In this document: piece by piece, positions 10,335 to 26,476 of the stretch
Position numbering within the stretch: the stretch's first letter is position 1
Layout: every line of letters begins with the position of its first letter
Origin: Candidatus Omnitrophota bacterium
GTDB lineage: Bacteria > Omnitrophota > Gorgyraeia > Gygaellales > Profunditerraquicolaceae
DNA length: 64,000 nt
Direction of reading: 5' to 3'
NCBI GenBank assembly: GCA_041650835.1
Contig: JBAZKL010000001.1
Location: 637,617-701,616 of the forward strand
The notes under the pieces: model-generated
Told to the model about the DNA's origin: nothing
Seen by the model: the letters and a program-made list of their open reading frames with translations, nothing else
Databases searched by the model: none
Made by a program: the position numbers and the translations under genes

Positions 10335-11339
10335 TTAAATTTTAATCTTAACTTCTTTAAAGAGCGAAAAAAGGCGCGTAAACGGGACATACCAGCGGGA
10401 CAACTGCCCCAATTGGCCTGTCAGCTTCATCTTGCCTTGCGTGACCGCCACAAATGAATCAAGCTTCCCTAAAAAAACCTGCTTCCAGGCCTCTGCCGGC
10501 GCGGAGATCACGAACGGCGCGTTACTATCGCAATCTAAACTCGTGATCCTTCCTTTTTCAAAGCTGAATTTATACACCTTATCGCTGGCATCGAGTTTGA
10601 TCGCCAATTGCAGCGTTAGATCAAGCTCCTCGCCTTTTTGCGCGATAAACTCATCCTTATTCACCAGGTCCACGATCGCCTGCACATGCTCTTTTGAAAA
10701 CATCTCATAGGCTATTTCTTTACGGGTTAACGTATTTTTAAGCGGGCTATCCAGTTCATCTAAAGCGTCTTTCTTGAACAAGCGCGCGACCGCGGCAACC
10801 CGCACCGCTTCTTCCAAAGCTTCGATCAGCGCCAGGGCGTCTTCAAAGGTATCCCCGAGAGCCACAACACCATGGTTCTTCAACACCACCAGGTTATTGT
10901 TTTTCAAAGCCTCAACGACCAGCTCGGGCTTTGTCACCGTCGGGGTGTCCTGCTCGACGACCGGCACTTCTCCAAGATAAAATTTAGTTTCGAAGGTCAA
11001 TGCCTTTAACGATGAATTCACGGCAAAATACCCATTGATCAAAGGGGCATGGCAATGGATAACTACTTTCGCCGGAAAATTCTTATAGGCCAGGCTGTGT
11101 AACGGCAATTCAGAGCTCGGCTTCTTATCCGCACGCGTTTTCCCTGTTGTAATATCAACCGGCACAATATCTTCCCGCCCCAAACCGCCTAAAAACGTTC
11201 CCGTAGCCGTAATAAGGATTGTCGCGTCATCCAACCGGGCGCTGATATTGCCGCTCTTAGCGACAGCAAGGCCGGTAGCATAGATCCTCCCGCCTACTTT
11301 AATCATCCGGTCTTTAACTATTTCTTCATTATCAAGCAT
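10335..11339 (-). CDS. class II aldolase/adducin-family enzyme (MtnB/Ald2-like) with a C-terminal SCP2-like extension
   Basis: N-terminal class II aldolase signature (SGNISARL...VIHCHAP). The C-terminal roughly 120 aa resemble an SCP2 sterol-carrier fold. It is in an operon with mtnA and a nucleoside phosphorylase. Confidence 0.7.
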   Translation of the reverse strand: MLDNEEIVKDRMIKVGGRIYATGLAVAKSGNISARLDDATILITATGTFLGGLGREDIVPVDITTGKTRADKKPSSELPLHSLAYKNFPAKVVIHCHAPLINGYFAVNSSLKALTFETKFYLGEVPVVEQDTPTVTKPELVVEALKNNNLVVLKNHGVVALGDTFEDALALIEALEEAVRVAAVARLFKKDALDELDSPLKNTLTRKEIAYEMFSKEHVQAIVDLVNKDEFIAQKGEELDLTLQLAIKLDASDKVYKFSFEKGRITSLDCDSNAPFVISAPAEAWKQVFLGKLDSFVAVTQGKMKLTGQLGQLSRWYVPFTRLFSLFKEVKIKI

Positions 11340-11342: not shown

Positions 11343-12278
11343 TTAAACTCCCAGGTAAATATGCTTTGTGATCAACTCTTTGGGGGTAACATCAAAAGCG
11401 GGATAATACCCCTTCACCCCGGCAGGGGCAAAACGAACGCCCTGATATTCCAGCAATTCCTTATCGGGCCTTATTTCAATGGGTATATCTTTACCGCTTG
11501 CTGCCTTTGAAGGAGGAGGACAAACCACATAAAAAGGGACCTTAAAATGTTCTGCTAAAAGGGCGATCTGATAGGTCCCGATCTTGTTGGCGATATCCCC
11601 GTTTTGAGCCAAATGGTCCGCTCCCACGATCACCTTAGTGACCTTATTTTCATGCATCAGTTGAGCCACCATATTATCAGCGATAACCGTAACATCAAAG
11701 CCCGCGCGGTTGAGCTCCCAGGCAGTTAAACGCGCGCCCTGCAGATACGGACGGGTCTCAGTCGTGAAAAAACGGATATGCTTATCCTGTTTTAAACAAA
11801 GCGAACCGATGAGCGGCATCAGGCCGCTGATATTACAATGCGTCAGGATAACATCCCCGTCATTGATCAAAAGGCTTACCTCTTCTGCCTGCTGTACGCG
11901 CTTGTTCTTTAACATTTCAAGAAAACCAAGGATACTTTTTTCCAGGTCTTTGCCTGCCTGCGCCCACCCCAGTACCATACCGGTCAAGATCTTAAAAGAA
12001 AGCGTCGGACGGCTCGAGTTTATGGCAGCGGCCACTTTTTCCAAGCGGGGAAGAATATCCTTACCCTGCTTTTTCTTCTTGATCTCCAGCAAGAAAGTAT
12101 ACATGACCAGGAGGACCTGGCCGACAGCCCTGGTCTTCATTTCCTTGATCGCGCGGCACGCCCCCTGATAATCCCTTACCTTCAGGTACACTTTTTTCCG
12201 CGGCAATCGCGTCTCATCAAGGATAAAGATAGTATCCCCTTTTAACTCGATAGGCCAAAACAACGGCGAGAACTTCAT
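11343..12278 (-). CDS. mtnA: S-methyl-5-thioribose-1-phosphate isomerase (eIF-2B alpha/beta/delta family)
   Basis: Family motif VIVGADHLAQNGDIANKIGTYQIALLA. Confidence 0.75.
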   Translation of the reverse strand: MKFSPLFWPIELKGDTIFILDETRLPRKKVYLKVRDYQGACRAIKEMKTRAVGQVLLVMYTFLLEIKKKKQGKDILPRLEKVAAAINSSRPTLSFKILTGMVLGWAQAGKDLEKSILGFLEMLKNKRVQQAEEVSLLINDGDVILTHCNISGLMPLIGSLCLKQDKHIRFFTTETRPYLQGARLTAWELNRAGFDVTVIADNMVAQLMHENKVTKVIVGADHLAQNGDIANKIGTYQIALLAEHFKVPFYVVCPPPSKAASGKDIPIEIRPDKELLEYQGVRFAPAGVKGYYPAFDVTPKELITKHIYLGV

Positions 12279-12279: not shown

Positions 12280-13050
12280 CTATTTGCCTTCCAATTTCTT
12301 CACGGCCGCCAAAGCGATCTCGATCAACTTCGATTCCGCCATATAATACATCGGATTCATAAACCCCATCTCACCGGTAATCACGTTATCGCTGACCGCC
12401 AGGATCGCTGCGGCCTTAACCTTATAGGTTTGCGCGATCGTAAGCAGTGTTGAAGAAACCATATCCACCGCGATCGCCCCTTCAAGGCGCTTTGACTCCA
12501 CCAACTCCCTGGTTTCGCGCAAAAGCGCGTCCGTCGTCCAGGCGCACCCCCGATGGACCGTCGCCCCCAGATCAGCGGCAACAGCAAAGAGGGTATCGGT
12601 AATCTTCTTGTCGGCAACCGTCTTAAAATCCTTATCGACGTAATACGGAGTTACTCCGTCTCCGCGAATGACCGTATCGACCACTATCAGGTCGCCGACT
12701 TTAATGTTTTCATCCAGCGCCCCGCAGGTGCCGATACGGATGATATTCTCTATCTCGGCATTGCACATAACCTCGGAGGTGATCGCGGTATCAGTGGAAA
12801 ACCTGCCGCCGTTGATAGCCGTAAGCTTGATACCCTGATACATCCCGGTATACATGGTATATTCCATAAAAGAAAAATTCTTCACCGGGTTCTCTATCTT
12901 CTTCATCAACACATCAAGCCTGTCTCTGGGCCCCGGCACGATCGCGTATTTGCCGACATCCTGAGGCCGCAGCTGCACCATCGCCGTAAGGTCCTTACCT
13001 GTCAAATGAACATCTTTTTGCATTTTCATATCGATCTCCTCACCAGTCAC
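12280..13050 (-). CDS. PNP/UDP family nucleoside phosphorylase, probable 5'-methylthioadenosine phosphorylase
   Basis: IRIGTCGALD motif of phosphorylase family 1. Operon context with mtnA and the aldolase. Confidence 0.65.
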   Translation of the reverse strand: MTGEEIDMKMQKDVHLTGKDLTAMVQLRPQDVGKYAIVPGPRDRLDVLMKKIENPVKNFSFMEYTMYTGMYQGIKLTAINGGRFSTDTAITSEVMCNAEIENIIRIGTCGALDENIKVGDLIVVDTVIRGDGVTPYYVDKDFKTVADKKITDTLFAVAADLGATVHRGCAWTTDALLRETRELVESKRLEGAIAVDMVSSTLLTIAQTYKVKAAAILAVSDNVITGEMGFMNPMYYMAESKLIEIALAAVKKLEGK

Positions 13051-13542: not shown

Positions 13543-14448
13543 CTAAAACAAACCTTGAATATTCTCTCCCAGGATCCCGTCTTTCTCCTTTTGGGTCAAG
13601 GGCAAAGCGCCTACCGCCTTTAATGAAACGGCAGGGTCCTTTTTCGCCGGCCAATCGCTTCCCCAAAGGATACGCTTGGCGCCTACCAGGGAAAGCGCCG
13701 CCTGAAAATTAGCGGCGGATGTATCCCCGCTTGTATCGACATATATATTCTTTAAATATTCCGAAGGGTTCGCGCGCAGGTCTTTTACAAGATCGATCCC
13801 CCGCAGCATCTGATAGGTTGAGTCAAAGCGGGAGGGCAAGTGGCAGATCACTCCGCCAAAGTAGGCAAAAACAAATTTTACCCCCGGATACTCGCGAAAA
13901 ATATCCGCCATAAGGAGCTTGCCGATACAGATCGTTGTGTCAAAAACATATTCGATGACCGGCGTCAATAACGCGTCCTGCACGCGGTCATAGCCGATAG
14001 GGTTGACGATCTGGGGGTGGACAAAGATCGGGATATCCTTCTTTTGAGATTCGGCATAAACAGGGATAAAAAGCTTGTCGTCAAGGTATCTTCCGTTATA
14101 GCTGCTTGCTAATGAGAGCGCCTGGAATCCCAGTTCCTCTGTCGCGCGCTTGAATTCATCAAGCATATCGGAAGCGTTGTCGATAGGCAAAACCGCGGCT
14201 CCGATAAAACGCCCCGGGAAGCGTTTCATGACCTTCGCGACATTGTCGTTAAAAGCGTACGTAACCTCGCTGATACTGCCTAATTTCAGGTGGGCGTCGG
14301 TAGTCGGATAACTCAAAACAGCTTTATCGATCCCGCGGGCGTCCATCATCGCTACCTGCGCGTCAATATCGCCCCAGGCTTTCGAGAAAAAATGCGCGTT
14401 ATTAATGATCTCAGCGGGCAACCAATGGCTATGGCTGTCGATTATCAT
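13543..14448 (-). CDS. amidohydrolase-2 family metal-dependent hydrolase (TIM barrel)
   Basis: N-terminal MIIDSHSHW metal-binding motif, 301 aa. Confidence 0.7.
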   Translation of the reverse strand: MIIDSHSHWLPAEIINNAHFFSKAWGDIDAQVAMMDARGIDKAVLSYPTTDAHLKLGSISEVTYAFNDNVAKVMKRFPGRFIGAAVLPIDNASDMLDEFKRATEELGFQALSLASSYNGRYLDDKLFIPVYAESQKKDIPIFVHPQIVNPIGYDRVQDALLTPVIEYVFDTTICIGKLLMADIFREYPGVKFVFAYFGGVICHLPSRFDSTYQMLRGIDLVKDLRANPSEYLKNIYVDTSGDTSAANFQAALSLVGAKRILWGSDWPAKKDPAVSLKAVGALPLTQKEKDGILGENIQGLF

Positions 14449-14484
14449 AAACGTTTCCCCGGGCTTATAGGAGCAACAGTCGCC

Positions 14485-14901: not shown

Positions 14902-14918
14902 ACGTTCGCCCCTCGCTT

Positions 14919-15527
14919 TTATTTCTTGACCAATTCGACATCATCGATGTACAAAACGCCTTTAGCCTCAGCCTTAGGCTCAAACTGGTAACTCTTTATC
15001 GGAAAATCCAACGTGTCGTTCTTGTCGGCGGCGTCAGGCTGCCAGTCTTTTCTCGGGTAGAAATCAGCGAGGGGGCAGACCATCTGCTGCCATCCGGTAA
15101 AATCATCGCTGACCATGGTGCGCCAGACTTCTTTCCCGTTATCTTTTATATCAAAGCATATATAGGCGCCTGAATTACTGCCGTACATATAAAAGGCTAT
15201 CGCGTTATATTTTGTCCAGTCGATATCCTGCAGGGGCACCAGCCACGCGGTGTTCTTCGAATCTAATTCAAAGCCGCGCGCCGCCCACATATAGCCGCCG
15301 GGGACCGCCTCATAGGCCAACTTGAGCGACTGCTTGCCGCCATGTTTGATATCTGTCGCGGCGCTGACCTCTAATTTCGAATCCCCTCCCGTCCCGAAAT
15401 CAACCGACCCGTCAGGGCCTCCTGAAAGAGCGCCTTCAAAATCATCGATCAATAAACCCTTGTCCTCTGCGAAACATACTGAAACCACACAAAGAGCAAA
15501 CACTAAACTTAACGTCAGCGCCTTCAT
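14919..15527 (-). CDS. secreted hypothetical protein, possible carbohydrate-binding beta-sandwich; paralogue of 43200-43850
   Basis: Signal peptide MKALTLSLVFALCVVSVCFA. Weak similarity to the 43200-43850 product. Confidence 0.45.
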   Translation of the reverse strand: MKALTLSLVFALCVVSVCFAEDKGLLIDDFEGALSGGPDGSVDFGTGGDSKLEVSAATDIKHGGKQSLKLAYEAVPGGYMWAARGFELDSKNTAWLVPLQDIDWTKYNAIAFYMYGSNSGAYICFDIKDNGKEVWRTMVSDDFTGWQQMVCPLADFYPRKDWQPDAADKNDTLDFPIKSYQFEPKAEAKGVLYIDDVELVKK

Positions 15528-15609
15528 GTTATTCCTCCTTATTTGTTTTACCGGTTAATCCTGTTTATCTGATAAACGTATCGCCTGATATTTTCACGGC
15601 CGCTGGAAA

Positions 15610-16386
15610 TTACTTGCCCGGATGCTGCTGCTTAAATGGTATCACCGGCTTAGTCCACGGCGTTTGCTGATTGATCACCGCGATCTCCAAAGGACAGACA
15701 TTCGCCGGCACGGTTAACGCAAAGCGCACCGCGCTCTCGATGGCTTCCGTTGTCATAAGCCGGGAGGTATCAGCGGTTATCTCCTGTAACTTTCCGGTCA
15801 GGTCGGTGTCCGTAACACCGGGGAGAAGAGAAGTGACCTTGATCCCATGATCACGCATCTCCCAAAACAACCCTTTTAAGAAAGCCTTTAATCCGACCTT
15901 AAGCGAACTATAGACCAGGAAATTCCGGGGCAGCGGGTCGCAGAGCGTTGAGCCTGAAACCATATTAATAATTGCCCCTTCCTTATTCTTAATCATATCA
16001 TTGATTACCAGCCGAATCAAGCGCACATACCCCAGATAATTAGTATGCACTAATCTTTCGAAATCGTCAAATGGCTGTTTCTCAAAAGGCGACTGGCTGG
16101 AAACCCCGGCATTATTGATCAGGATATTGATAGCGCCGAACTTTTCTTTCGCCTTATTCACCAGGTTCTCTAAATCTTCAAGTTTGGTAACATCGCAGAC
16201 AACCGGTAAAACCTCGACCTTATACTTCTTCCTGATCTCATCCGCGGTTTCTTTAAGCGGCCCTTCAGTACGCGCGGCAATGACAACATTAGCCCCTAAA
16301 TCAGCGCAGGTTGCAGCTAAAGCTTTACCGATACCGCGGCTGGCTCCCGTCACTATCGCGGTCTTCCCTCTAACCTTAGACATCAT
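15610..16386 (-). CDS. short-chain dehydrogenase/reductase (probable ketoreductase of the PKS-like cluster)
   Basis: TGASRGIGKA Rossmann motif, NNAG, and the YxxxK catalytic pair (YSSLK). Confidence 0.85.
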   Translation of the reverse strand: MMSKVRGKTAIVTGASRGIGKALAATCADLGANVVIAARTEGPLKETADEIRKKYKVEVLPVVCDVTKLEDLENLVNKAKEKFGAINILINNAGVSSQSPFEKQPFDDFERLVHTNYLGYVRLIRLVINDMIKNKEGAIINMVSGSTLCDPLPRNFLVYSSLKVGLKAFLKGLFWEMRDHGIKVTSLLPGVTDTDLTGKLQEITADTSRLMTTEAIESAVRFALTVPANVCPLEIAVINQQTPWTKPVIPFKQQHPGK

Positions 16387-17519
16387 ATGCCCCCCTTTAA
16401 GTTCCCTGGCAGGAATTTATTACTCAGTAACAACAACAGGAGTAATCCTCCCGCAAACACGCCATAATGCAGCAAAAAACTTTTCTGTAAAAGTATGCTG
16501 CCTATGGTAACGCCGATCCCGGCGGAAATAAAACGGATGCTGCTGTTTAAGCCGGCAGATTCGTTTATGAATTCTTTCGGTAAATCGGTCAATAATGTTG
16601 AAAGCCCGGCATGGTTCAACGTCCAACCGAATCCCCAAACAAGCATTACTATCGCTATCGCCGGAAACGGCAATTTCACGCAGAGCGTCAACACGCTCAA
16701 TATCATTAAGGCAATTCCCAGGTTAACCACCTTAAGCCTTCCCAGGGAATCCGAGAAACATCCTCCCGCTACTTCTCCTATGATGCCGCTTAAGCTGGTC
16801 AAGGTGATCAGGGTACTGATCAGGAATTGATCAAAGCCATAGGCTTTTGAAAAAAATACCGCGAGCCACTGCTGCACGCCATGATAAAAGAAACTAACAA
16901 GAAAGATATAACTCAACACTAAAACTACTGTTTTATTACGGAATACCTTATTATAATGCGCCGCGAAACTGCCCGTGGTTGCCTTAAAATCCTGAAGATA
17001 CCAATACATGTGTACCCAGACCAGAAAACCGAACACCGCGGGAAGAAAATAGATCATTCTCCACGGGAGTACCGCGCTTAAACTTAAGCCCAAGAGCGAG
17101 GCGACAAATGTGGCGCTAAAAAAGATCCCGGTCAACTTCCCCTTATTCTCCGGTTCGCCGTACTGGCTGATCAGGATCAACACCAGAGGGACAACCGATG
17201 CCCCGAATACACCCATCAGGACGCGCGACGCGTACAATATTCTTATATTCGCGGCAAAAGCCGCGAACAGGTTTGCCGCGCAAAAAAGGAAGAAACAAAC
17301 CAATTCAACTTTCTTCGCGTTGAACTTCCTTACCAGGGGGCCGTAAAAGAGCGCCGCGACGCCATAGGCAAGCATATACAACCACATGATCCTTCCCGCG
17401 ACAAACTCAGAGACGTTGAATTCCCTTGCGATCGAAGGGACCAACGCGGAACTCGCAGCCACGTTAAAAGACAACACCGCGCCTTCAAGGCAAAGCAAAG
17501 AAAATGTGGTTTTTCTCAC
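16383..17519 (-). CDS. MFS transporter
   Basis: 378 aa with about 12 TM helices. It overlaps the SDR start by 4 bp. Confidence 0.8.
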   Translation of the reverse strand: MRKTTFSLLCLEGAVLSFNVAASSALVPSIAREFNVSEFVAGRIMWLYMLAYGVAALFYGPLVRKFNAKKVELVCFFLFCAANLFAAFAANIRILYASRVLMGVFGASVVPLVLILISQYGEPENKGKLTGIFFSATFVASLLGLSLSAVLPWRMIYFLPAVFGFLVWVHMYWYLQDFKATTGSFAAHYNKVFRNKTVVLVLSYIFLVSFFYHGVQQWLAVFFSKAYGFDQFLISTLITLTSLSGIIGEVAGGCFSDSLGRLKVVNLGIALMILSVLTLCVKLPFPAIAIVMLVWGFGWTLNHAGLSTLLTDLPKEFINESAGLNSSIRFISAGIGVTIGSILLQKSFLLHYGVFAGGLLLLLLLSNKFLPGNLKGGI

Positions 17520-17522
17520 TAC

Positions 17523-17966
17523 TCAAACCTTCGCGGCAGCACGTTCTATCACGTCCTTAAAGATCAAAAGGTTTTCCTTCGAATGTTTATTGATAAACCC
17601 TTCCACCTGCTCATCGTTGAACTTCGCCTTATCATCCATCTGGAAATGCTGGATCCAGGACAATTCCACACCTTCCGGCTTTTGCGTGTAAAGCCAGACG
17701 ATCTTCATATATTTAAAAGGGAATTTCGGCTCTTCTCTTTCAGAATAGGTAAAGCATTTTTCTTTAAATAAAAGCCTCCAGGACTGCCAGGATTTCCCTT
17801 CGTCATCAGTCAGGCGGAAGGTGATCTTGTTGCCCTCTTTCTTTACTATTTCGGCTTTCCGGTATTCGCCGCCGAACAGTTCGGTCCAGCGGGGAATATC
17901 GTTTGAGATATCGAACACCTTATCATACGGAGCATTGATGATTATAGAATTACATGTATGTCCCAT
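17523..17966 (-). CDS. SRPBCC (polyketide cyclase/dehydrase, Bet v1-like) family protein
   Basis: 147 aa with a fold-family resemblance to TcmN-type aromatase/cyclase. Supported by PKS context. Confidence 0.55.
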   Translation of the reverse strand: MGHTCNSIIINAPYDKVFDISNDIPRWTELFGGEYRKAEIVKKEGNKITFRLTDDEGKSWQSWRLLFKEKCFTYSEREEPKFPFKYMKIVWLYTQKPEGVELSWIQHFQMDDKAKFNDEQVEGFINKHSKENLLIFKDVIERAAAKV

Positions 17967-18003
17967 AGGTTACCTCCTTGCGGCCTGAGACTTATGACAT
18001 TTA

Positions 18004-18318
18004 CTATTTCCCGAATAAACTCAACAGGATCGCCAGGTCCTCAGACGCGCTTAACGAATGCGGCGCGTTCTTGGGCATAAAGATAAATACACCCGGAGCC
18101 ATTTTGATCTTTTTACCGTTTAATATAAAAGTACCCTTCCCCTTTAAAACCGTCACTGCAGCTTCCCGGCTGGAGGTATGCTCGGAAATATCGCTCCCCT
18201 TTGCCAGGCACATGAGCGTATAGTTGGAAGTATTCGTCTTTACCAACACCTTACTAAAGACACCGTCTTTGGGGAATTCCATCATCGCTTCCAGATCTAG
18301 TATCGCTGATTTAATCAT
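18004..18318 (-). CDS. cupin domain protein (possible TcmJ-like polyketide cyclase)
   Basis: 104 aa small cupin barrel (GSDISEHTSSREAAVTVLKGKGTFILNGKKIKMAPGVFIFMPKNAPHSL). Confidence 0.55.
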   Translation of the reverse strand: MIKSAILDLEAMMEFPKDGVFSKVLVKTNTSNYTLMCLAKGSDISEHTSSREAAVTVLKGKGTFILNGKKIKMAPGVFIFMPKNAPHSLSASEDLAILLSLFGK

Positions 18319-18423
18319 ATTCTCCTTTTATTAAAAGCAATAGACACAAAGTCACCAGACACACGACACAAGTTTCAAGAGATATAGCACAAAAGCCTAA
18401 CCTGTGTCTGGTATCTTGAGACT

Positions 18424-19239
18424 TTACAATACCGCAACCACCCGCGCCCAGGCGGCACCCGTGCATTTGATCTTGATCGGAAAACAAATAATCTTAAACC
18501 CGGAATCCGGCAGTTTCCCTAATCCGCAGAGCCGCTCTATATGAATGAATTCCCTTTTCCGGCCGTGAAAATGCGCCGGATACAAAGGATGCTTTTTCTT
18601 GTCCTCCAGGAATTCCTTAAGCATGAATTTATACGGCCGGTCGATCCCCATAGTATCGACACCAAAGATCTTGATGCCCCTATCAAGCAGATAATCGATC
18701 GCCGTTACATCCACCCCCGGGTATTCCGAAAAATACTTCGGGCCGCCGTAGAATTTATCCGCGCCGGTATAAAAAAGGACAATATCAAAAGGTTTAAGGG
18801 TATAATTGATCTTTTTAAGGCTATCTTCCACGTCCGTGGCAGTAATACAATCCGCGGGTTTCTTACGCGTCAGGTCCAGGCGCACACCGTCGCAATAACA
18901 CCATTCTAAAGGGATTTCTTCGGCAGTTTTCGCGGGGCGCCCCTCAGAGCGGGAGCCGTAGTGGAAAGAATAATCCAGATGCGTGCCGATATGGACAGGT
19001 GAATGGACAATTTCTAAAGATAAGAATTCTCCGTCAGGCAGATCATCCGGGCTAACCATACGATTACCCAGAAAATACTTGAGCCTGCCTAAAAGGGTCT
19101 TGCCCATGATCACGCGGTTAAACTTCTCAACCCCAGCCTTATGCCCCACCCGCTCAATATCCACCGGGTGGACTTCAAAGGCTTTTTCATCGATAGGAAG
19201 GCTTAAGTCTATGATCTGCATAACGTTTTGGGCTTGCAA
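18424..19239 (-). CDS. cyclase family protein (kynurenine formamidase-like fold)
   Basis: HxGTHxDxxxH motif (HSPVHIGTHLDYSFHYG). Confidence 0.75.
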   Translation of the reverse strand: MQAQNVMQIIDLSLPIDEKAFEVHPVDIERVGHKAGVEKFNRVIMGKTLLGRLKYFLGNRMVSPDDLPDGEFLSLEIVHSPVHIGTHLDYSFHYGSRSEGRPAKTAEEIPLEWCYCDGVRLDLTRKKPADCITATDVEDSLKKINYTLKPFDIVLFYTGADKFYGGPKYFSEYPGVDVTAIDYLLDRGIKIFGVDTMGIDRPYKFMLKEFLEDKKKHPLYPAHFHGRKREFIHIERLCGLGKLPDSGFKIICFPIKIKCTGAAWARVVAVL

Positions 19240-19294
19240 AAAAAAATACGCGAGAAAAACGCCGACTCATCCGATAAGTCAGCGCGATAAAACG

Positions 19295-19534
19295 TTAAAC
19301 TTTTGCCAGCTTTGACTGAATGACCTTAACGATCTCATCGATCGTAGAAAGCTTAGAGATCTCTTTGGTGCTTATTTTCGTATTAAAGGTTTTTTCTAAA
19401 GCAATAACTGCTTCGACCATTTCAGTAGAATCAACCCCGATACTTTCCTGCAAAGTCACGCTGTCTTTAAGTTCTTCCGGTTTTACGCGTAACAACTTGA
19501 CTAAAACATCCTTGATCTGAGCTTTTATATCCAT
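19295..19534 (-). CDS. acyl carrier protein
   Basis: 79 aa with the 4'-phosphopantetheine attachment region GVDSTEMVEAV. Confidence 0.75.
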   Translation of the reverse strand: MDIKAQIKDVLVKLLRVKPEELKDSVTLQESIGVDSTEMVEAVIALEKTFNTKISTKEISKLSTIDEIVKVIQSKLAKV

Positions 19535-19928
19535 ACTTATCCCCCTTTAGAGATTACTTATAACAAATGCAGGCCGTATAACACAACTAATTTATAATTT
19601 TAGGTTATGGCTCAGGTTAAGATATTTGTTTGGTTGTTGGGTTTGGTAGTTAGGTTATATAACGTTAATGATAAAGTTTAAAGGCCCTGCCTCACCGGCA
19701 GGTAAATAACAAAGGAAGGTTTAAGACTCAAGGTTTAATCTTAAAATTTATCCTTTATTCTTTGGATTTCCTTTGTTCTTTGAGCTTTAACCTTTGATCT
19801 TAACTTGCTCTACTTGTTTTTAACCAAACCGCTTTACCCAACTACTAAACTAAAATCATTACCCTTGCCTAACTACCCTCTATGGACTATTTGCCTGCCC
19901 CGAGCTTGTCGAGCGGTGTCTTGCAACT

Positions 19929-21389
19929 TTAAATATGAACCTCTCCCTTAGTAGCTCCAGCCTCCCACTTCCCTACTCCTGCCATAACATCCTGGAAACA
20001 GAGCTTTGCCAACGGATCAAAATTGCTCTCCATGATGCGGTTGATGCGGCCGGGTTTTGAGAAAAATTCCCGCATACACCATGAACCCAAACGGCCGAGG
20101 TCATCAATGGTCAAATGATCCGTGGGAATAACAGGATGCAAGAAATCCCACTGGCTGAAATCAACTTTCTTAGGGTCAATCCAGTTCTTCTTTAAAGAGA
20201 TCCGCCACATAGGTGAATTCGGGGCAGGCGTGACGTAACCAACCCAGAGGATATCCGGGTCGACCTGATCTGTGAACTCAAAGCGCTGCTTAATAATAGC
20301 TTCCGTATCATAATCAAAACCCATCATGATATCCGCGACAATGGCAATATCGTTCTTGCGCAGGATCTCAATGGTCTTTTTGATCTGATCAAGGGTGATC
20401 CCCTTGGCGATCCTTTTAAGCTCTGACTGCGTGGTTACTTCAATACCGAAAACTCCCATAAACAGGCCTGTTTCCTTCATCAGCGGCAAGATTGACTCGC
20501 AATTGACCCAATCAATAGCCCGGCCAAGAGAAACCCATTTAATGTCAATTTTCTTTTGTTTCTTTAAATTACAGAATCTTTTCACGCGTTCAGGATCAAC
20601 ATTGAAATTATCATCCTGAATGACCACGACCTTGACCCCGTACTTATTCTGCAGCAAGGCCATTTCTTCAATGACCCGCTCAGGGCTTTTGGCGCGCCAC
20701 TTCAGGAAGTCTGACGGAGAACGCGGGTCAAACTGGTCCCATTCGTAGCAAAAGGTGCACGCTGAAGGGCAGCCCCGTGAAGTAACCATATCCACGAACG
20801 GCTTCCAATACGTATGGCCAACATACTTATCCATCGGGAACAGATCGTATGCCGGCAAAGGCAGTTTATCGAGGTCCTCTAAAAGCGGTTTATGCGGCCC
20901 CATCACGATCTCGCCATCGATCCGCGAAGTAACGCCGCCCACGTCTTTTAAGTCTTTCTTTTTATCGATAGCTTCGATTAAATCCCCGAATGATTCTTCT
21001 TCACCCATGACCACAAAATCAACTGCCGGATTTTCTTCCAGCGTCGGCACCGGCATGGCTGAATACCACAATCCGCCCAAAATTATTTTTGTCCGGGGCA
21101 ATGCCTTTTTGATCCCTGCCGCTGCCTCTTTAAAATGACGCAACACTCCATAGCCTCCGTAGCCATGCAGCTGTTCACCCATCACCACAATATCAGGCTT
21201 CTTGGCCTTGACCTGCTCGATCAGCTGGTCCATAGGGAGCTGGTCTGCTTTCCCGTCGATAACCGAGACATCCTCATATCCTCGTTCCCGCGCGTACGCT
21301 GCCCAGTGCGCGTACAATTGATTCGGCGAACGATGTATCCCATGGGTTGCCCAGGCGCCTACTTTAGGCATGACAAACAGAATTTTCAT
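19929..21389 (-). CDS. B12-binding domain radical SAM protein (class B, probable C-methyltransferase or rearrangement enzyme)
   Basis: N-terminal cobalamin-binding-like domain and the radical SAM CxxxCxxC motif (SRGCPSACTFC). Confidence 0.85.
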   Translation of the reverse strand: MKILFVMPKVGAWATHGIHRSPNQLYAHWAAYARERGYEDVSVIDGKADQLPMDQLIEQVKAKKPDIVVMGEQLHGYGGYGVLRHFKEAAAGIKKALPRTKIILGGLWYSAMPVPTLEENPAVDFVVMGEEESFGDLIEAIDKKKDLKDVGGVTSRIDGEIVMGPHKPLLEDLDKLPLPAYDLFPMDKYVGHTYWKPFVDMVTSRGCPSACTFCYEWDQFDPRSPSDFLKWRAKSPERVIEEMALLQNKYGVKVVVIQDDNFNVDPERVKRFCNLKKQKKIDIKWVSLGRAIDWVNCESILPLMKETGLFMGVFGIEVTTQSELKRIAKGITLDQIKKTIEILRKNDIAIVADIMMGFDYDTEAIIKQRFEFTDQVDPDILWVGYVTPAPNSPMWRISLKKNWIDPKKVDFSQWDFLHPVIPTDHLTIDDLGRLGSWCMREFFSKPGRINRIMESNFDPLAKLCFQDVMAGVGKWEAGATKGEVHI

Positions 21390-21510
21390 AAAACCCCCCT
21401 TTGAAAATGATAATTAAAAACTTGTTCCGGCCACAAGTCACATGACACAAGTAAAAAGAATCAAAACCTGCGGCTGGTGTCTTGTGTCGGGTGTCTATTG
21501 GAGCTTTACA

Positions 21511-22740
21511 CTATGATTTCTCTACTACCAGCGCCGAATTGATACCGCCCCTGCCGCGGGAGATGATCAAGGCTTTCTTGATCTTATGCGGGAGCGCCTT
21601 ACCGGTGACAAAATTCAAGCCATTGTAAAAAGGCTCATCCAAATTGATGGTCGGAGGAACAAGGTCATGCTCCATGCTCAAGAGCGTGATGATCAGGTCA
21701 ACCGCCCCCGACGCGCCCAAAAGATTCCCAAACATCGATTTCGGACAACTCAGCGGGATATCTTTCGCCTTTTTGCCGAAAACTTCCTTTATTGCCGCTA
21801 TTTCGGTATTATCCCACTCATCGACCGCCAGGCCGTCTAAACTGATATAATCTATTTCTTCAGGCAATGCCCCGGCGTCAGTAAGCGCCAGAGTGATCGC
21901 CCTGGCTAATTGTTTCCCGTTGGAATCCGGATGGATCCTGTCTTTTCCGTCGCAGGTCGTGCCAAAACCGGAAATATACCCCGCGATCGCGGCGCGACGC
22001 GCTTGGGCGTGGTCAAAATCTTCCATGACCACGATACCCGCTCCTTCACCGATCACAAAGCCGGAGCGTTTTTTATCAAACGGCCGGTAGGCGCTTTCCG
22101 GTTTCTCATTACGAGTAGAAAGCGAGCCATAGGTATTACAACACAATAAAGCGTAAGGAGTGACCGGGGCCTCCATCCCTCCCGCCAGGATAAGATCAAG
22201 TTTTTTCTTCGCTAAGGTAGTGCGCGCGTAGCCGAGCGCCATTAAAGAACTCGCCCGGTCCGATACGACTGTTTTACTAAAGCCCTTGATGCCGTAATAG
22301 ATCGACACCTGCCCTTGAGGCGCGGCAGGGAACCACGCCGAAGCCATATAAGGAGAAACTCCTTCGCGCCCTTCGATATAAAGGTCGCGCAATTCCGTTT
22401 CCGCGTATAACCATCCGCCTAAAGCATTTCCCAGGAATATCCCCACCAGGTTCGGGTCCTCATTCTTAATATCAATACCGGCATCCTGCAAAGCCATTTC
22501 AGAGGCGATCAAGGCCATATGAGAAAAAACATCTATTTTCTTTAAAAGCCGTTCGGAGACATGCGAATATTTTTCCAGGTCATCGATCTGGCCGGCAACG
22601 CGCGACGGATATAACGAAGCGTCAAAACGCGTGATCGCCTTGACAAAAGGCCTGCCTGATTTTATATTCGCCCAGAACTGGCGTTTTCCGATGCCGGAAG
22701 GAGCGACAATGCCTGATCCGGTAATAGCTATTTTTTTCAT
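21511..22740 (-). CDS. ketosynthase beta / chain-length-factor-like, catalytically inactive
   Basis: KAS fold, but the active-site Cys is absent (TVVSDRASS where KS-alpha has STGCTAG) and both catalytic His are replaced (SLDGLAV, KSMFGNLLG). Its start overlaps the stop of the upstream KS-alpha (ATGA), suggesting translational coupling. Confidence 0.8.
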   Translation of the reverse strand: MKKIAITGSGIVAPSGIGKRQFWANIKSGRPFVKAITRFDASLYPSRVAGQIDDLEKYSHVSERLLKKIDVFSHMALIASEMALQDAGIDIKNEDPNLVGIFLGNALGGWLYAETELRDLYIEGREGVSPYMASAWFPAAPQGQVSIYYGIKGFSKTVVSDRASSLMALGYARTTLAKKKLDLILAGGMEAPVTPYALLCCNTYGSLSTRNEKPESAYRPFDKKRSGFVIGEGAGIVVMEDFDHAQARRAAIAGYISGFGTTCDGKDRIHPDSNGKQLARAITLALTDAGALPEEIDYISLDGLAVDEWDNTEIAAIKEVFGKKAKDIPLSCPKSMFGNLLGASGAVDLIITLLSMEHDLVPPTINLDEPFYNGLNFVTGKALPHKIKKALIISRGRGGINSALVVEKS

Positions 22741-23996
22741 TCCAGCCGCCTCATGACTAAAGAAGAATGTATCCCCGAAAAACCGCTGCTTGTTTTAATG
22801 ATGGTTTTGACTTTTTTCCGGCGCGCGACATTGGGGATATAATCGAGGTCGCACAGAGGGTCTTTTTCCTCCTGGTTTATCGTCGGAGGAAGGACATCAT
22901 TCTGAAAGATCATCGAGCAGATGGTAAGTTCGACCGCGTTTGCCGCTGCCAGGGGGTGTCCGAACATCGACTTAAGAGAACTGATAGGCAGTTTATAGGC
23001 GTAATCGCCGAAGATCATTTTATAGGCGCTTGTCTCGAATATATCATTCATGCGCGTCGATGAACCATGCGCGTTAATATAATCTATCTGCTCAGGCTCA
23101 ACCCCGGCATCAAGGAGCGCTAATTTAATGCACTTAGCCATCGCCGTCCCGTCGCCCGGCAGGTCAGTCATATGAAAAGCGTTACAACTGGTGCCGAAGC
23201 CAAGGACCTCACAATAGATGGTCGCGTTGCGCTTCAAGGCGTGCTCAAGTTCCTCCAGGATCAAGATCCCCGCTCCTTCCGACAAAACAAAGCCGTTACG
23301 CTTATTATCAAAGGGGCGGCTGGCAGCCTCAGGGTCATCATTAAGCGTCGATAAAACATTCACCACATCAAAGGCGCCGAAGGTGATCGGGGTTAAAGGC
23401 GCTTCCGCGGCGCCTGCGACCATAATATCATGCTGGCCGTCCTGTATCGTCTCTAAAGCAAACCCTAACGAATCGGTCCCGGCGGTACAGCCGGTAGACA
23501 AGGTATCGCAAATGCCGCGCAAACCGTATTTCGTGGAAATCTCTATCGAAGGGGTATTGAACATCGCCGCGTCATAAAGGTCGGGCCTCGCCAAAGCGGG
23601 ATTGATCGGCGACTTACCGTTATCCGTCACCAGCGCGAATTCTTCTTCCATATACTTGGTGCCGCAGATCGCGTTTGCCAGGCAAACCCCCACCCGTTCA
23701 GGGTCCTCTTTTGAAAAATCAAGCTTACTATCCTTGATCGCCATGTTTGCCGCGACCACTCCGAATTGCACATAGCGGTCCATACGCACGGCCTCATCAT
23801 GGGTCAACCCTAAGGCAAAGGGGTCAAAATCCTTTACCTGCGCGGCGATCTTGGTATTAAAAACCGAAACATCAAAATCTTCAACTTTCTTAATACCTGA
23901 TTTTCCGGAAACAAACGCCTTCCAGGCATTTTCTTTTCCGATACCGTTGGGCGAGATCACACCGATCCCTGTTATCACGACTCTTCGTTTCTTCAT
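22737..23996 (-). CDS. beta-ketoacyl synthase (KS-alpha type, catalytically active)
   Basis: Catalytic triad is present: Cys in LSTGCTAGTDSLG, His in INAHGSSTRMND and His in KSMFGHPLAA. The track ORF begins with TTG at 24026, but the ATG at 23996 (MKKRRVVITGIG) is the likely start. Confidence 0.85.
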   Translation of the reverse strand: MKKRRVVITGIGVISPNGIGKENAWKAFVSGKSGIKKVEDFDVSVFNTKIAAQVKDFDPFALGLTHDEAVRMDRYVQFGVVAANMAIKDSKLDFSKEDPERVGVCLANAICGTKYMEEEFALVTDNGKSPINPALARPDLYDAAMFNTPSIEISTKYGLRGICDTLSTGCTAGTDSLGFALETIQDGQHDIMVAGAAEAPLTPITFGAFDVVNVLSTLNDDPEAASRPFDNKRNGFVLSEGAGILILEELEHALKRNATIYCEVLGFGTSCNAFHMTDLPGDGTAMAKCIKLALLDAGVEPEQIDYINAHGSSTRMNDIFETSAYKMIFGDYAYKLPISSLKSMFGHPLAAANAVELTICSMIFQNDVLPPTINQEEKDPLCDLDYIPNVARRKKVKTIIKTSSGFSGIHSSLVMRRLE

Positions 23997-24042
23997 ATTT
24001 TTATCGCAATACAATAGTAGTTTCAAGACACAAGTTTAACCG

Positions 24043-24666
24043 CTACTCTGGTGACCTGGCGTCTTTGTGCTCTGGTGACTTTGTTCCCTCGACTCTCCTG
24101 ACCTCAAAAACGATACTGCCTCCGTCAGGACAGGTGACCGTGTTGATCGAGTCAGGATCCTTCATGAATGAGAACTTGGCGCCGAAATTAAGCGCGAAAA
24201 GCGCGGGGAACGCCGTGTGAAACGCGGCCCCGCAAAATCCCGGGATACATTTTAATCCGACCGTTTCCCAGGTATCCCCTACTTTATAACCAAACGTACA
24301 TTTCCCCGGAGCTTTCACTACTTCAATAACCATCTTCTTCGGATCCGGCCCTTTATGCCGCACATCTCTCGGGACCGATTCGACTTTGCCTTCTTTATCC
24401 AGGACCTCCGCTTTGAATTCCAGCTTTCCCCCGTCAGGGCAGGTCACCATCAGCGAACGTTGATTTTCCCTGAACGGGAACTTCGCGCCAAAGCTTAAAG
24501 CGTAGATCACCGGAAAAAGAGCGTGCGCTAATCCCAGGCAAAAATGCTTCGGAGGATGAGTAAAATCCTCTAAAATAAGTTCATCGCCGGCCTTATACCC
24601 GTGATAGCATTCTCCATAAACGTTGGAAACAGTCAATTTCAGCTTAGGGAACGGTGATTGTATCAT
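24043..24666 (-). CDS. hypothetical protein with two tandem ~95 aa Cys-rich repeats (CPDGG motif); possibly TIGR04076-like
   Basis: Internal duplication: CYHGYKAGDEL...FCLGLAHALFPVIYALSFGAKFPF...VTCPDGGKLEF and CTFGYKVGDTW...FCGAAFHTAFPALFALNFGAKFSF...VTCPDGGSIVF. Confidence 0.5.
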   Translation of the reverse strand: MIQSPFPKLKLTVSNVYGECYHGYKAGDELILEDFTHPPKHFCLGLAHALFPVIYALSFGAKFPFRENQRSLMVTCPDGGKLEFKAEVLDKEGKVESVPRDVRHKGPDPKKMVIEVVKAPGKCTFGYKVGDTWETVGLKCIPGFCGAAFHTAFPALFALNFGAKFSFMKDPDSINTVTCPDGGSIVFEVRRVEGTKSPEHKDARSPE

Positions 24667-24671
24667 TGGGT

Positions 24672-25682
24672 TCAGGGGGCTTTGATAAATTTTTTGGTTT
24701 CCGCTATCAAATGATGTTTGCTGAAGAATTTTCCGGTGCGCTCAACCAAATGCACCATCTCAACCAGCTTTTCGTTAAGCGGAGCTTGCAGCTTTTTATC
24801 CCTGGCAACACGCACGTACTCACCGTTGATATAATCGATCTCCGAAGGCCGTTTCCTTTTTATGCTCTGCAGAATAGACCCATACAACGGCTCCTTGCTC
24901 AAATTGATCATGATCTCCGACATGATCCGTGAAGATTCAACCAGCGGCATCGAAGCCAGGCTCACCAGGCGCTCCACCGGAAAATCAGGCAAACCCGCCA
25001 TCTTGACGCCGGCCCGGGTAAAAACCTCCAGGCCTTCACGCCAGATAGTGACCGCCACCCGGCTTATTTCCATATCGGCAAACGCCTCCTGAATACTCAT
25101 CCCTAATACGGCCGGAAGGCAATTGTTCGCGTTAAGAAAGATCTTTAAATATTTCATGGCAGTCACGTCGTCGCTTAAAACCATGGGGAACATTTTTTTC
25201 ATCAGGAGAAAAACCTCTTTAAGCGTATTGTCCTGCCTGCCGTTAAGCCTGCCGATAACCCAGGGTCCTTCAAAATTCTGCACGATATGAGCGGGGGTAA
25301 CGTAGGTCGCCCCGAACATGACGATACTTGAAATAATATGCTCCCGCGGTATATGCTCCGCGATAATATGGTCGGCCTGCACGCCGTTCTGGATGGTCAG
25401 GATGGTTGAGTTCTTCAGGAATTTCAAATTCTGTTTAATGGTGCTCTCGCAATCCTGCGTTTTTACCGTCAGGATCACTAAATCGAAGCTTTCCTGTAAA
25501 CTCCCGGAAACATCAACTGGGACATTTATATTGCCCCTGGTGCCGTTGACCGTTAACCCGTTCTTTCGTATTACTTCAACATATTCGGGACGGACAAATA
25601 AAGAAACCGCCTCACCTCTGAATTTTAAATATGCCGCGACCAATCCGCCGATCGCCCCGCCCCCGATGATTGCTATTTTCAT
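24672..25682 (-). CDS. ketopantoate reductase (ApbA/PanE) family NAD(P)-dependent oxidoreductase
   Basis: N-terminal MKIAIIGGGAIGG Rossmann motif, 336 aa, two-domain KPR architecture. Confidence 0.65.
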   Translation of the reverse strand: MKIAIIGGGAIGGLVAAYLKFRGEAVSLFVRPEYVEVIRKNGLTVNGTRGNINVPVDVSGSLQESFDLVILTVKTQDCESTIKQNLKFLKNSTILTIQNGVQADHIIAEHIPREHIISSIVMFGATYVTPAHIVQNFEGPWVIGRLNGRQDNTLKEVFLLMKKMFPMVLSDDVTAMKYLKIFLNANNCLPAVLGMSIQEAFADMEISRVAVTIWREGLEVFTRAGVKMAGLPDFPVERLVSLASMPLVESSRIMSEIMINLSKEPLYGSILQSIKRKRPSEIDYINGEYVRVARDKKLQAPLNEKLVEMVHLVERTGKFFSKHHLIAETKKFIKAP

Positions 25683-25688
25683 ATACCC

Positions 25689-25967
25689 TTACCCGTTTGT
25701 CCTGTTGCCTTTCTTAGGAAAGCCGTATTTTTTATAATCAATACCTGATTGCTCCAACAAACGCACCATCATGCTGTAAAAAGGCACCGGGACATCGGAA
25801 AAGAAAGCGCTGATGACGTCTAGCTCCTGCACCGCGGCGCCATGACGCGCGGCGGCATTCTCCTCCGCTTTTTTTCTTACCGCGCTCTCAGCGATGTGCC
25901 GGTGAAAAACAGGCAATTTCGCGATAATACCGGTAAACTTCTCCTGGATATCAGCTTCCCATTCCAT
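25689..25967 (-). CDS. hypothetical small protein
   Basis: ORF with no motif I recognise. Confidence 0.3.
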   Translation of the reverse strand: MEWEADIQEKFTGIIAKLPVFHRHIAESAVRKKAEENAAARHGAAVQELDVISAFFSDVPVPFYSMMVRLLEQSGIDYKKYGFPKKGNRTNG

Positions 25968-26119
25968 AGCTTATAAAACCTCCCGAGCCTTACGCTTATA
26001 GTAAAATTTTACTATATTATTTCCCAATATTTTATAATTAAATTATTTTTTGTCAAGCCTAAAAACTAACATCTCATCAAACAAGGGATTACCGCGGGAT
26101 AACAAAGACACGAAAGGAC

Positions 26120-26404
26120 TTAATACCCCCTGAGGATCGATTCAATCTTCGTCTTAATTGACGCGGCTTCAATCCTGCCGGCCAATTCGACATTGCCGTT
26201 AATAAGGACTACCGGCACCTGCGCGGGGCTTAAACTATACCGCTGCATGGCTTTTAAATTCTCCGTATGTTTAAACTCGAAGAATATCTTTGTTTTATAT
26301 TGTATTTCCAGGCCTTTAACGACTTCCCGTATCTTTTTTTCAATGAATTCGCATTTAGGGCAGGGTCTGCATATGACTTCAATCGTTTTAATGGCCATGA
26401 TCAT
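26120..26404 (-). CDS. small thioredoxin-fold protein with a CPKC redox motif
   Basis: 94 aa with a CxxC (CPKC) motif. Confidence 0.55.
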   Translation of the reverse strand: MIMAIKTIEVICRPCPKCEFIEKKIREVVKGLEIQYKTKIFFEFKHTENLKAMQRYSLSPAQVPVVLINGNVELAGRIEAASIKTKIESILRGY

Positions 26405-26476
26405 TACTCCTTTTTACGCGCGCCGATACGTTTGATTTGAAAAGGATCTTTATAATAAAACTGGCGATCACACCCG

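Follow-up and report, generated by a model that had tools for sequence, protein, structure and literature searches.

Type II polyketide synthases (PKSs) are usually seen as sporadic secondary-metabolite machinery, found mainly in actinomycetes. Among the well-described examples are the actinorhodin ketosynthase (KS) with its chain-length factor (CLF; 1TQY), AntD/E of Photorhabdus (6SMO) and the TcmN and WhiE systems, and these are the closest counterparts of the gene cluster described here. It lies on the minus strand of a 64,000-nucleotide stretch of DNA from a Candidatus Omnitrophota bacterium (contig JBAZKL010000001.1, positions 637,617 to 701,616), which is called the window in the following, with position 1 as its first letter. 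We consider it rather likely that this cluster encodes a vertically inherited type II PKS pathway characteristic of Omnitrophota, which would form an aromatic polyketide under anaerobic conditions, tailor it with a radical S-adenosylmethionine (SAM) enzyme and dispose of the resulting 5'-deoxyadenosine.

The Omnitrophota cluster shares with the systems mentioned a KS-alpha with a catalytic triad, a coupled non-catalytic KS-beta, a discrete acyl carrier protein (ACP), an aromatase/cyclase (ARO/CYC) of the TcmN/WhiE type, accessory proteins of the PF04199 and cupin types and the lack of a dedicated malonyl transferase. It differs from them in its host, a member of an uncultured and mostly anaerobic phylum, in the absence of oxygenases, and in that a radical SAM enzyme with a B12-binding domain is the most conserved gene. 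Moreover, KS-beta carries an invariant Arg where the CLF has Gln, the short-chain dehydrogenase/reductase (SDR) is not of the actinorhodin ketoreductase type, and the constant companions are a ketopantoate-reductase-family (KPR) protein, a DUF2621-like protein, a LigW-type decarboxylase and genes of the kind that form the dihydroxyacetone phosphate (DHAP) shunt.

In the 5-deoxyribose or DHAP shunt, a phosphorylase or kinase, the isomerase DrdI and the aldolase DrdA dispose of 5'-deoxyadenosine, an inhibitor of radical SAM enzymes (PMC6079011). According to work cited there, the same sequence of enzymes turns 5'-fluoro-5'-deoxyadenosine into fluoroacetaldehyde in Streptomyces cattleya. These three enzyme families are also encoded in the window, and an aldehyde dehydrogenase gene comes after them, as on the way to fluoroacetate. 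Unlike in the shunt, the trio is joined here to a radical SAM/PKS cluster, its aldolase has an extra SCP2 domain and a FadD-like ligase is found alongside. On the route to fluoroacetate, fluoroacetaldehyde is then oxidised to the acid. BchE, the anaerobic Mg-protoporphyrin monomethyl ester cyclase, and HpnJ have the same architecture of B12-binding and radical SAM domains and the CxxxCxxC motif as the radical SAM enzyme of the window, which nevertheless scores far under the equivalog cut-offs of both.

Radical SAM tailoring of a type II PKS product is known from coelulatin, an anthraquinone that is modified by a radical SAM methylase; this enzyme, CoeI, belongs to the HemN-like class (PMC9714029), whereas the window enzyme belongs to the B12-domain class. 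The coelulatin cluster stems from a soil metagenome, was expressed in Streptomyces and is not phylum-wide. A CLF catalogue from 2023 lists Candidatus Omnitrophica among 14 phyla with KS-CLF matches, with no further analysis (PMC10132072). A term search in the main text of the main genomic survey of Omnitrophota gave no passage on the cluster, and 'secondary metabol', 'biosynthetic gene cluster' and 'ketoacyl' are absent from that main text, in which ubiquinone and menaquinone genes are described as patchy. The idea of a quinone-like product is speculative. No account was found, in the literature searched, of a type II PKS with phylum-wide conservation that centres on a B12-domain radical SAM enzyme and is accompanied by KPR, DUF2621-like and LigW-type proteins as well as by genes of the DHAP-shunt type.

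The ketosynthase pair and its distribution in Omnitrophota

The original prediction had described a KS-alpha with an intact Cys-His-His triad and a KS-beta without any of the three catalytic residues, the stop codon of the former overlapping the start codon of the latter (ATGA). The overlap is seen in the sequence, and alignment to FabF and to the actinorhodin KS/CLF structures agreed with the description: Cys180, His320 and His357 of KS-alpha align with the triads of FabF and actinorhodin KS-alpha, and KS-beta has Arg162, Asp302 and Asn339 in the same columns. The catalytic Lys is kept in both subunits (Lys352 in KS-alpha, Lys334 in KS-beta). The database homologues of KS-alpha comprise 419-420 amino acids, which points to the ATG at 23996, and not the TTG at 24026, as its probable start.

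Both subunits fall below the cut-off of the NCBIfam equivalog model for FabF (TIGR03150, 493.75 bits), KS-alpha with 468.8 and KS-beta with 362.3 bits. Among solved structures, KS-alpha scores highest with the actinorhodin KS-alpha (383 bits) and with AntD (376 bits); FabF proteins reach about 358 bits. These three proteins, KS-alpha, actinorhodin KS-alpha and AntD, have in common an insertion of five residues and the motifs STGC, HMTDLPxDGxAMA and SSGFSGIHS, all of which are missing from FabF. In KS-beta, the Asp at the first His position and a downstream (A/G)VxExD pattern are CLF-specific, and the C-terminal RGRxGxNS occurs likewise in the actinorhodin CLF, whereas FabF proteins have FGFGGHN instead. 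A neighbour-joining tree of 17 sequences (five Omnitrophota pairs, actinorhodin KS-alpha and CLF, AntD and four FabF proteins; 200 bootstraps) grouped the Omnitrophota KS-alpha proteins with actinorhodin KS-alpha and AntD, and the Omnitrophota KS-beta proteins with the actinorhodin CLF, with the FabF proteins apart, each at 100%. Judged by these sequence comparisons, the two proteins form a genuine type II PKS pair of the KS-alpha/CLF type. The pair thus lies outside FabF, as had been proposed, and no alignment restored a catalytic residue in KS-beta.

The cluster is not the isolated oddity that it had first been taken for; it is a conserved, syntenic and lineage-wide trait of Omnitrophota. 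KS-alpha is 100% identical to a protein encoded on an 838-kb contig of a Candidatus Omnitrophota metagenome-assembled genome (MAG), and its identity to over 120 other protein clusters, formed at 90% identity, is 81-97%, in most cases 81-85%; where source names are given, they are Omnitrophota or Omnitrophica, save for one 'bacterium'. When one genome per GTDB species was scanned with KS-beta, close relatives were detected in at least 178 species-representative genomes, the best 80 being 76-96% identical and nearly all labelled Omnitrophota. These best 80 of the 178 KS-beta loci were compared with the window proteins by tblastn, and all counts out of 80 refer to them.

The 80 loci showed strict synteny in the order DUF2621-like gene, KPR, duplicated TIGR04076, KS-alpha, KS-beta, radical SAM, ACP, PF04199, cupin (not always present), SRPBCC, MFS (not always present), SDR, CBM11-like (not always present), hyp138, Amidohydro_2, nucleoside phosphorylase of the PNP family and MtnA-like isomerase. 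The exporter of the MFS type and the cupin are dispensable, but the core enzymes are not. Median identities were 88.5% for the radical SAM enzyme, 83% for the SDR, 80% each for KS-alpha and the TIGR04076 protein, 79% for SRPBCC, 78% for KS-beta and 74.5% for the PF04199 protein; the radical SAM enzyme is thus the most constrained protein of the cluster. The KS-alpha triad is conserved in 75-76 of the 80 loci, and in the exceptions the best match was KS-beta. The Arg/Asp/Asn substitutions of KS-beta are invariant in all 80 loci and in three variant loci, and Ser36 of the ACP is invariant in 62 loci and in the variants. By these median identities (78% versus 80%), selection acts as strongly on the 'dead' KS-beta as on its catalytic partner KS-alpha.

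Conservation of a type II PKS within a lineage is also known for WhiE of Streptomyces. The lineage-wide, vertical conservation in Omnitrophota argues against an ordinary strain-specific secondary metabolite. The cluster also turns up, at 78-96% identity, in several public MAGs that bear the names Planctomycetales, Pseudomonadota, Patescibacteria or Thermodesulfobacteriota (L001, L008, L009, L012, L058, L076); the contigs in question probably belong to Omnitrophota and were wrongly labelled or binned.

The B12-domain radical SAM enzyme and its partner genes

The radical SAM enzyme scored below the cut-off of every NCBIfam model. BchE came closest with 206.5 bits (cut-off 481.35), followed by HpnJ with 157.5 bits (cut-off 577.6), and the model for ladderane lipids, TIGR04072, gave 71.5 bits (cut-off 360). 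The closest solved relative is AprD4 with 60 bits. An exhaustive search of 1.8 billion representatives placed the enzyme in a narrow clade, with only four full-length clusters at 39-46% identity (P0241, 46%; P0242, 44%; P0243, 39%; P0244, 39%) above a background of about 34% or lower. The two closest relatives (46% and 44%) are flanked by genes of the PKS and/or salvage type rather than by those for pigments or hopanoids. Conversely, in 35 metagenome loci of P0243 relatives (35-39% identical to the window enzyme; GC content 53-61% in the loci nearest P0243) no KS, phosphorylase, isomerase or aldolase was found among the neighbours. According to Pfam searches of two of these loci, the neighbours are a Mo-oxidoreductase and ferredoxins in one (L105) and a SPASM radical SAM gene and UbiD in the other (L093). 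Such neighbours offer no hint at what the enzyme does. Since the P0243 relatives have such unrelated neighbours, the linkage of the radical SAM enzyme to its partners is specific to the clade.

Two rearranged variants of the cluster (B and C, the window type being variant A) occur outside the lineage of the window, and variant B is found in Omnitrophota. Variant B belongs to the family P0241 and was seen in two loci (L081, on a contig of 1.0 Mb, and L083). Its order is PadR, FadD-like AMP-ligase, phosphorylase, MtnA-like isomerase, a short MtnA-like gene, aldolase, aldehyde dehydrogenase, radical SAM, DUF2621, KPR, KS-alpha, KS-beta, ACP, PF04199, SRPBCC, in some cases MFS and a methyltransferase, SDR, a PC4-like gene and Amidohydro_2. 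KS-alpha of this variant is 70-72% and KS-beta 61% identical to the window proteins. Variant C (L089, P0244) has the order radical SAM, DUF2621, KPR, duplicated TIGR04076, KS-alpha, KS-beta, ACP, PF04199, SRPBCC, Amidohydro_2 and a second radical SAM gene; TIGR04076 is present in variants A and C and missing in variant B. In both rearranged variants the KS-alpha triad, the Arg/Asp/Lys/Asn of KS-beta, the ACP serine and the radical SAM cysteines are all identical to those of the window. The minimal PKS, ARO/CYC, PF04199 protein, decarboxylase and radical SAM enzyme stay clustered in three gene orders.

Variant C is interrupted between the cyclase and the ARO/CYC by a 440-amino-acid gene without a Pfam match and a lipoprotein gene (L089, 6667-8365). 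At 11446-21446 of the same locus, the second, related radical SAM gene is followed by a Mo enzyme of the xanthine dehydrogenase family, XdhC and molybdenum-cofactor genes.

A third lineage (P0242; L087 and L088, GC content 38%) has a FadD-like ligase, a methyltransferase, the radical SAM enzyme, phosphorylase, MtnA-like isomerase, aldolase-SCP2, aldehyde dehydrogenase, an MMPL/HAE3 exporter and a LolA-like protein. In L087 the radical SAM gene overlaps the phosphorylase gene. The gene set of these two loci (L087, 1398-11592; L088, 1-8748) adjoins Wood-Ljungdahl genes (MTHFR, CODH/ACS).

In the window, the three enzyme families of the DHAP shunt (PNP_UDP_1, MtnA-type isomerase and Aldolase_II) are encoded by adjacent genes in the same direction, and the phosphorylase and isomerase adjoin the cluster in variants A and B and accompany the radical SAM gene in the P0242 lineage. 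The phosphorylase is nearest to uridine phosphorylase and DeoD models and not to MTAP, and neither for it nor for the aldolase did an equivalog model reach its cut-off. Full-length homologues of the aldolase-SCP2 protein occur in L081, L083 and L087, and the length of the fusion is conserved. The aldehyde dehydrogenase is closest to models of betaine-, aminobutyr- and phenylacet-aldehyde dehydrogenases. By family and arrangement, the trio would reproduce the logic of the 5-deoxyribose/DHAP shunt for the disposal of 5'-deoxyadenosine, its substrates being predicted. A disposal route of its own within the cluster suggests a high flux through the radical SAM step, and such a flux fits the phylum-level conservation and a core rather than a strain-specific product.

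An AMP-ligase at 1-599 had been set aside as too distant from the cluster. This fragment is 44-53% identical to the FadD-like ligase of L081, L083, L087 and L088 (44-48% for the variant B loci), and the ligases of these relatives reach 440-460 bits with a FadD-like subfamily model (cut-off 476) and are not acetate-CoA ligases. As the orthologue directly adjoins the rearranged cluster in variant B, the ligase of the window is probably part of the system.

Gene content of the locus and its surroundings

Each of the domain assignments made originally was reproduced with Pfam and NCBIfam (Table 1). Ten genes had been counted at 15610-25682; the list of open reading frames (ORFs) gives eleven minus-strand ORFs in the same direction, which are separated by small gaps or overlap. 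These limits are moreover too narrow, and the conserved block runs past them on both sides, with the DUF2621-like gene upstream and hyp138, the LigW-type decarboxylase and the phosphorylase, isomerase, aldolase and aldehyde dehydrogenase set downstream. The GC content and skew of the cluster are uniform with those of the flanks.

Table 1. Features of the cluster and of the genes linked to it, in window coordinates; counts are given out of the 80 compared loci.
Feature	Position	Strand	Basis or remark
Promoter-like site TTGACA-16-TAAAAT, 11/12	26029..26056	-	Consensus match only; about 60 nt 5' of the first conserved gene
DUF2621-like, weakly PCP_red-like protein, 92 aa, first in the conserved block	25689..25967	-	Weak Pfam matches
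KPR-family (ApbA/PanE) NAD(P)H oxidoreductase	24672..25682	-	Pfam ApbA and ApbA_C; TIGR00745 176.9 bits (cut-off 141)
Tandem-duplicated TIGR04076 protein, CPDGG motif	24043..24666	-	Two TIGR04076 repeats
KS-alpha, Cys180/His320/Lys352/His357	22737..24026	-	Ketoacyl-synthase domains
KS-beta, CLF type, Arg162/Asp302/Lys334/Asn339	21511..22740	-	Ketoacyl-synthase domains
Class B (B12-binding) radical SAM enzyme, CxxxCxxC at 207-214	19929..21389	-	Pfam B12-binding and Radical_SAM
ACP, phosphopantetheine Ser36 (DST)	19295..19534	-	PP-binding, 38 bits
PF04199 metal-dependent cyclase/hydrolase-fold protein, HxGTHxD	18424..19239	-	Pfam, 98.9 bits
Cupin_2 protein, accessory	18004..18318	-	Pfam; 14/80 loci
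SRPBCC (Polyketide_cyc2) mono-domain ARO/CYC, TcmN/WhiE-ORFVI type	17523..17966	-	Pfam and PDB phmmer
MFS_1 transporter, accessory	16383..17519	-	Pfam/NCBIfam; 37/80 loci
Classical SDR (adh_short), YxxxK	15610..16386	-	Pfam
Secreted CBM11-like protein, accessory	14919..15527	-	Pfam; 28/80 loci
hyp138, conserved hypothetical protein, 138 aa	14485..14901	-	Without family match; 44/80 loci
Amidohydro_2, LigW/ACMSD/gamma-resorcylate decarboxylase type	13543..14448	-	Conserved HxH...H...D
PNP_UDP_1-family nucleoside phosphorylase	12280..13050	-	Pfam
MtnA-like (eIF-2B family) sugar-1-phosphate isomerase	11343..12278	-	TIGR00524 205.6 bits (cut-off 185.85)
Class II aldolase fused to C-terminal SCP2	10335..11339	-	Aldolase_II 123 bits; SCP2 26.5 bits, above cut-off
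Non-acylating aldehyde dehydrogenase	8109..9599	-	Adjoins aldolase in L081, L083, L087
AMP-binding acyl-CoA/ACP ligase, N-terminal part, runs off the window	1..599	-	Homology to FadD-like ligases

Among the tailoring enzymes, the SRPBCC protein matched in a phmmer search of the PDB only the mono-domain ARO/CYC proteins WhiE-ORFVI (3tl1/3tvr/2kf2, 5e-24) and TcmN (2rez, 1e-22). Its earlier description as an aromatase/cyclase can thus be narrowed to the TcmN/WhiE type, and this match is the strongest single indicator that the predicted product is an aromatic type II polyketide. The protein is present in all variants, as is the PF04199 protein, which conserves the HxGTHxD metal motif and has only distant hydrolase relatives in the PDB. 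The SDR, originally described as a ketoreductase, is a generic one with clavaldehyde dehydrogenase and FabG as top matches; it is not specifically of the actinorhodin C9 ketoreductase type, and the actinorhodin ketoreductase is not among its top 60 matches. The Amidohydro_2 protein, again found in all variants, has LigW (5-carboxyvanillate decarboxylase), ACMSD and gamma-resorcylate decarboxylase as its closest solved relatives and is a probable non-oxidative aryl-acid decarboxylase; a member of this family fits the loss of a polyketide carboxylate. The KPR-family reductase is likewise kept in all variants.

The TIGR04076 protein scored 98.9 bits in two stretches (cut-off 33), and each repeat has conserved Cys, Cys, His and Cys residues and ends in CPDGG; the protein is a probable metal or Fe-S auxiliary. 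Two incidental mentions of TIGR04076 were found in the literature, neither with an assigned function, and the sole fold lead is an XdhC-family protein. The DUF2621-like gene occurs in 62 of the 80 loci. In variants B and C, where Pfam identifies it as DUF2621, it comes directly after the radical SAM gene.

Several features of the surroundings are recorded here as observations. The CBM11-like gene, which encodes a signal peptide, sits between the SDR gene and hyp138, within a PKS cluster a puzzling place for a carbohydrate-binding module. The decarboxylase and phosphorylase genes are separated by a gene with a hemerythrin domain (13072-13506), which was found in one of the 80 related loci and may be an oxygen- or iron-related accessory beside the Fe-S enzymes. 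Directly upstream of the cluster is a minus-strand efflux operon (27025-33119) with genes for MarR, an outer-membrane efflux protein, an HlyD-type adaptor, an RND pump (1055 amino acids) and a small P-II-like protein. The RND and P-II genes adjoin the cluster in 12-15 of the 80 related loci, and this operon could be the exporter of the cluster product. AccA, the alpha subunit of the acetyl-CoA carboxylase carboxyltransferase, is encoded at 34200-35147, 8.5 kb upstream of the cluster, and is probably a housekeeping source of malonyl-CoA.

An Rfam scan of 10000-28000 detected no riboswitch and gave only two sub-threshold chance matches, and in promoter and terminator scans of the region the numbers of sites were not above those in shuffled sequences. 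The spacer of 394 bp between the radical SAM and ACP genes (19535-19928) was rejected as a feature of the system, as it is not conserved and measures 7-208 bp in other loci; it contains neither a minus-strand ORF of at least 20 amino acids nor an Rfam match. A strong terminator-like hairpin is located at 19285-19259, 3' of the ACP gene.

Proposed pathway and competing explanations

In the pathway that we favour, KS-alpha and KS-beta would join malonyl units on the ACP into a poly-beta-keto chain, with the malonyl transferase and phosphopantetheinyl transferase presumably encoded elsewhere, and the FadD-like ligase would supply or activate an acyl starter. The ARO/CYC and the PF04199 enzyme would then fold and aromatise the chain, with the help of the cupin in some genomes, and the KPR and SDR reductases together with the LigW-type decarboxylase would trim keto and carboxyl groups. 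The radical SAM enzyme may carry out an oxygen-independent C-H functionalisation, either a C-methylation or a BchE-like oxidation or ring closure, for which the TIGR04076 protein with its Cys3His pattern and the DUF2621-like protein are candidate auxiliary partners. The inhibitory 5'-deoxyadenosine would be cleared through DHAP-shunt chemistry by the phosphorylase, the MtnA-like isomerase, the class II aldolase and the aldehyde dehydrogenase, and in some lineages the finished compound may leave the cell through MFS or RND transporters. This compound is probably an aromatic polyketide, possibly quinone-like or pigment-like, and its role appears to be core-physiological rather than strain-specific. 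We infer the radical SAM reaction, the chain length and the product alike from the sequences.

Some results weigh against this pathway. The overall scores of KS-beta are slightly higher with FabF proteins (284 bits) than with the actinorhodin CLF (269 bits), and the Gln that is typical of the Cys position in a CLF, such as that of actinorhodin, is replaced by the invariant Arg in the Omnitrophota KS-beta. The neighbour-joining tree comprises few sequences, and the two non-catalytic subunits may have been drawn together by long-branch attraction. Because the radical SAM enzyme falls outside all curated families, the reaction proposed for it is a guess. Furthermore, in L087 and L088 the enzyme stands beside salvage-like genes and no KS gene is in view, and a plain salvage route leaves the SCP2 domain of the aldolase, the non-acylating type of the aldehyde dehydrogenase and the FadD-like ligase, which is not an acetyl-CoA synthetase, unexplained.

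These last features lead to an alternative in which the adenosyl unit is not waste but a building block. The radical SAM enzyme would graft a 5'-deoxyadenosyl group onto a hydrophobic molecule X, the phosphorylase would remove the adenine, and the isomerase and aldolase-SCP2 would release DHAP and X-CH2-CHO. The aldehyde dehydrogenase would oxidise the latter to X-CH2-COOH, which the FadD-like ligase would activate as the starter of the KS. The enzyme logic would be that of the formation of fluoroacetate from 5'-fluoro-5'-deoxyadenosine, and the end product would be a lipophilic aromatic polyketide, e.g. a quinone-like redox carrier, as a core metabolite of Omnitrophota. MqnE and HpnH are known to add the adenosyl radical to a substrate, after which the PNP-family enzymes MqnB and HpnG remove the base. 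In agreement with such a route, the radical SAM enzyme keeps phosphorylase, isomerase, aldolase, aldehyde dehydrogenase and ligase genes as neighbours in three arrangements, the aldolase carries a lipid-binding SCP2 domain in a fusion of conserved length, the ligase is of the long-chain FadD-like type and not an acetate-CoA ligase, and the non-acylating aldehyde dehydrogenase is nearest to the betaine-, aminobutyr- and phenylacet-aldehyde models. In the third lineage, an exporter of the lipid type (MMPL/HAE3) and a LolA-like protein are encoded as well. To our knowledge, the adenosylating radical SAM enzymes described so far, MqnE and HpnH, are not of the B12-domain class. A precedent for chemistry on a 5'-substituted deoxyadenosine is provided by the work cited in PMC6079011. 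The disposal of 5'-deoxyadenosine, however, accounts equally well for the core trio, X is wholly hypothetical, and among the sequence features compared none separates adenosyl transfer from hydrogen abstraction. We therefore regard the use of the adenosyl unit as a building block as unlikely.

It is similarly improbable that the cluster makes a lipid, in which case the KS pair and ACP would elongate an acyl chain to be modified by the radical SAM enzyme, giving a product of the ladderane, aryl-polyene or fatty-acid-synthase-derived type. A lipid would agree with the FabF-like subfamily model PRK07314, which KS-alpha passes (457.8 bits, threshold 387), with the FabF proteins as best overall matches of KS-beta, with the hints of lipids given by the FadD-like ligase, the SCP2 domain and the MMPL exporter of the relatives, and with the very high conservation, which suits a structural component of the cell. 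In addition, ladderane-type biosynthetic gene clusters have been called by antiSMASH in Omnitrophota MAGs (PMC9902471), and these calls may well refer to the present cluster. But a dehydratase (FabZ/FabA) or enoyl reductase is found in no variant, while the TcmN/WhiE-type ARO/CYC is found in all of them, and KS-alpha misses the FabF equivalog cut-off and groups with the KS-alpha proteins of type II PKSs. For these reasons a primary fatty-acid synthase was ruled out, as was a ladderane cluster on account of the score of the radical SAM enzyme with TIGR04072, which is far under the cut-off.

That the locus is an ordinary, horizontally acquired antibiotic or pigment cluster, as the original framing implied, is very unlikely: the minimal PKS, cyclases, reductase and exporter do resemble classical aromatic antibiotic clusters, efflux genes are nearby, and the composition, with GC content and skew as in the flanks, is silent on acquisition or else speaks against it, but the cluster occurs in at least 178 species representatives with about 75-88% median identity in its core enzymes, rearranged orthologous versions exist elsewhere (variant B in Omnitrophota, and variant C), and it is the exporter and cupin that are dispensable, not the core.

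With this cluster, a type II PKS is maintained in no fewer than 178 species of a phylum that is uncultured, largely anaerobic and composed of ultra-small cells, and it has outlasted rearrangements. Conservation across Omnitrophota and through these rearrangements implies a physiologically important product, such as a pigment, a redox carrier or a component of the cell envelope. The invariant Arg at the CLF position is a clue to how such subunits work. An oxygenase-free pathway with a B12-domain radical SAM enzyme from a narrow clade could reveal how aromatic polyketides are tailored independently of oxygen. The constant linkage to DHAP-shunt-type genes, finally, would represent either the first clear biosynthetic gene cluster with its own 5'-deoxyadenosine disposal or a way, not seen before, of drawing carbon for a product from the adenosyl unit.

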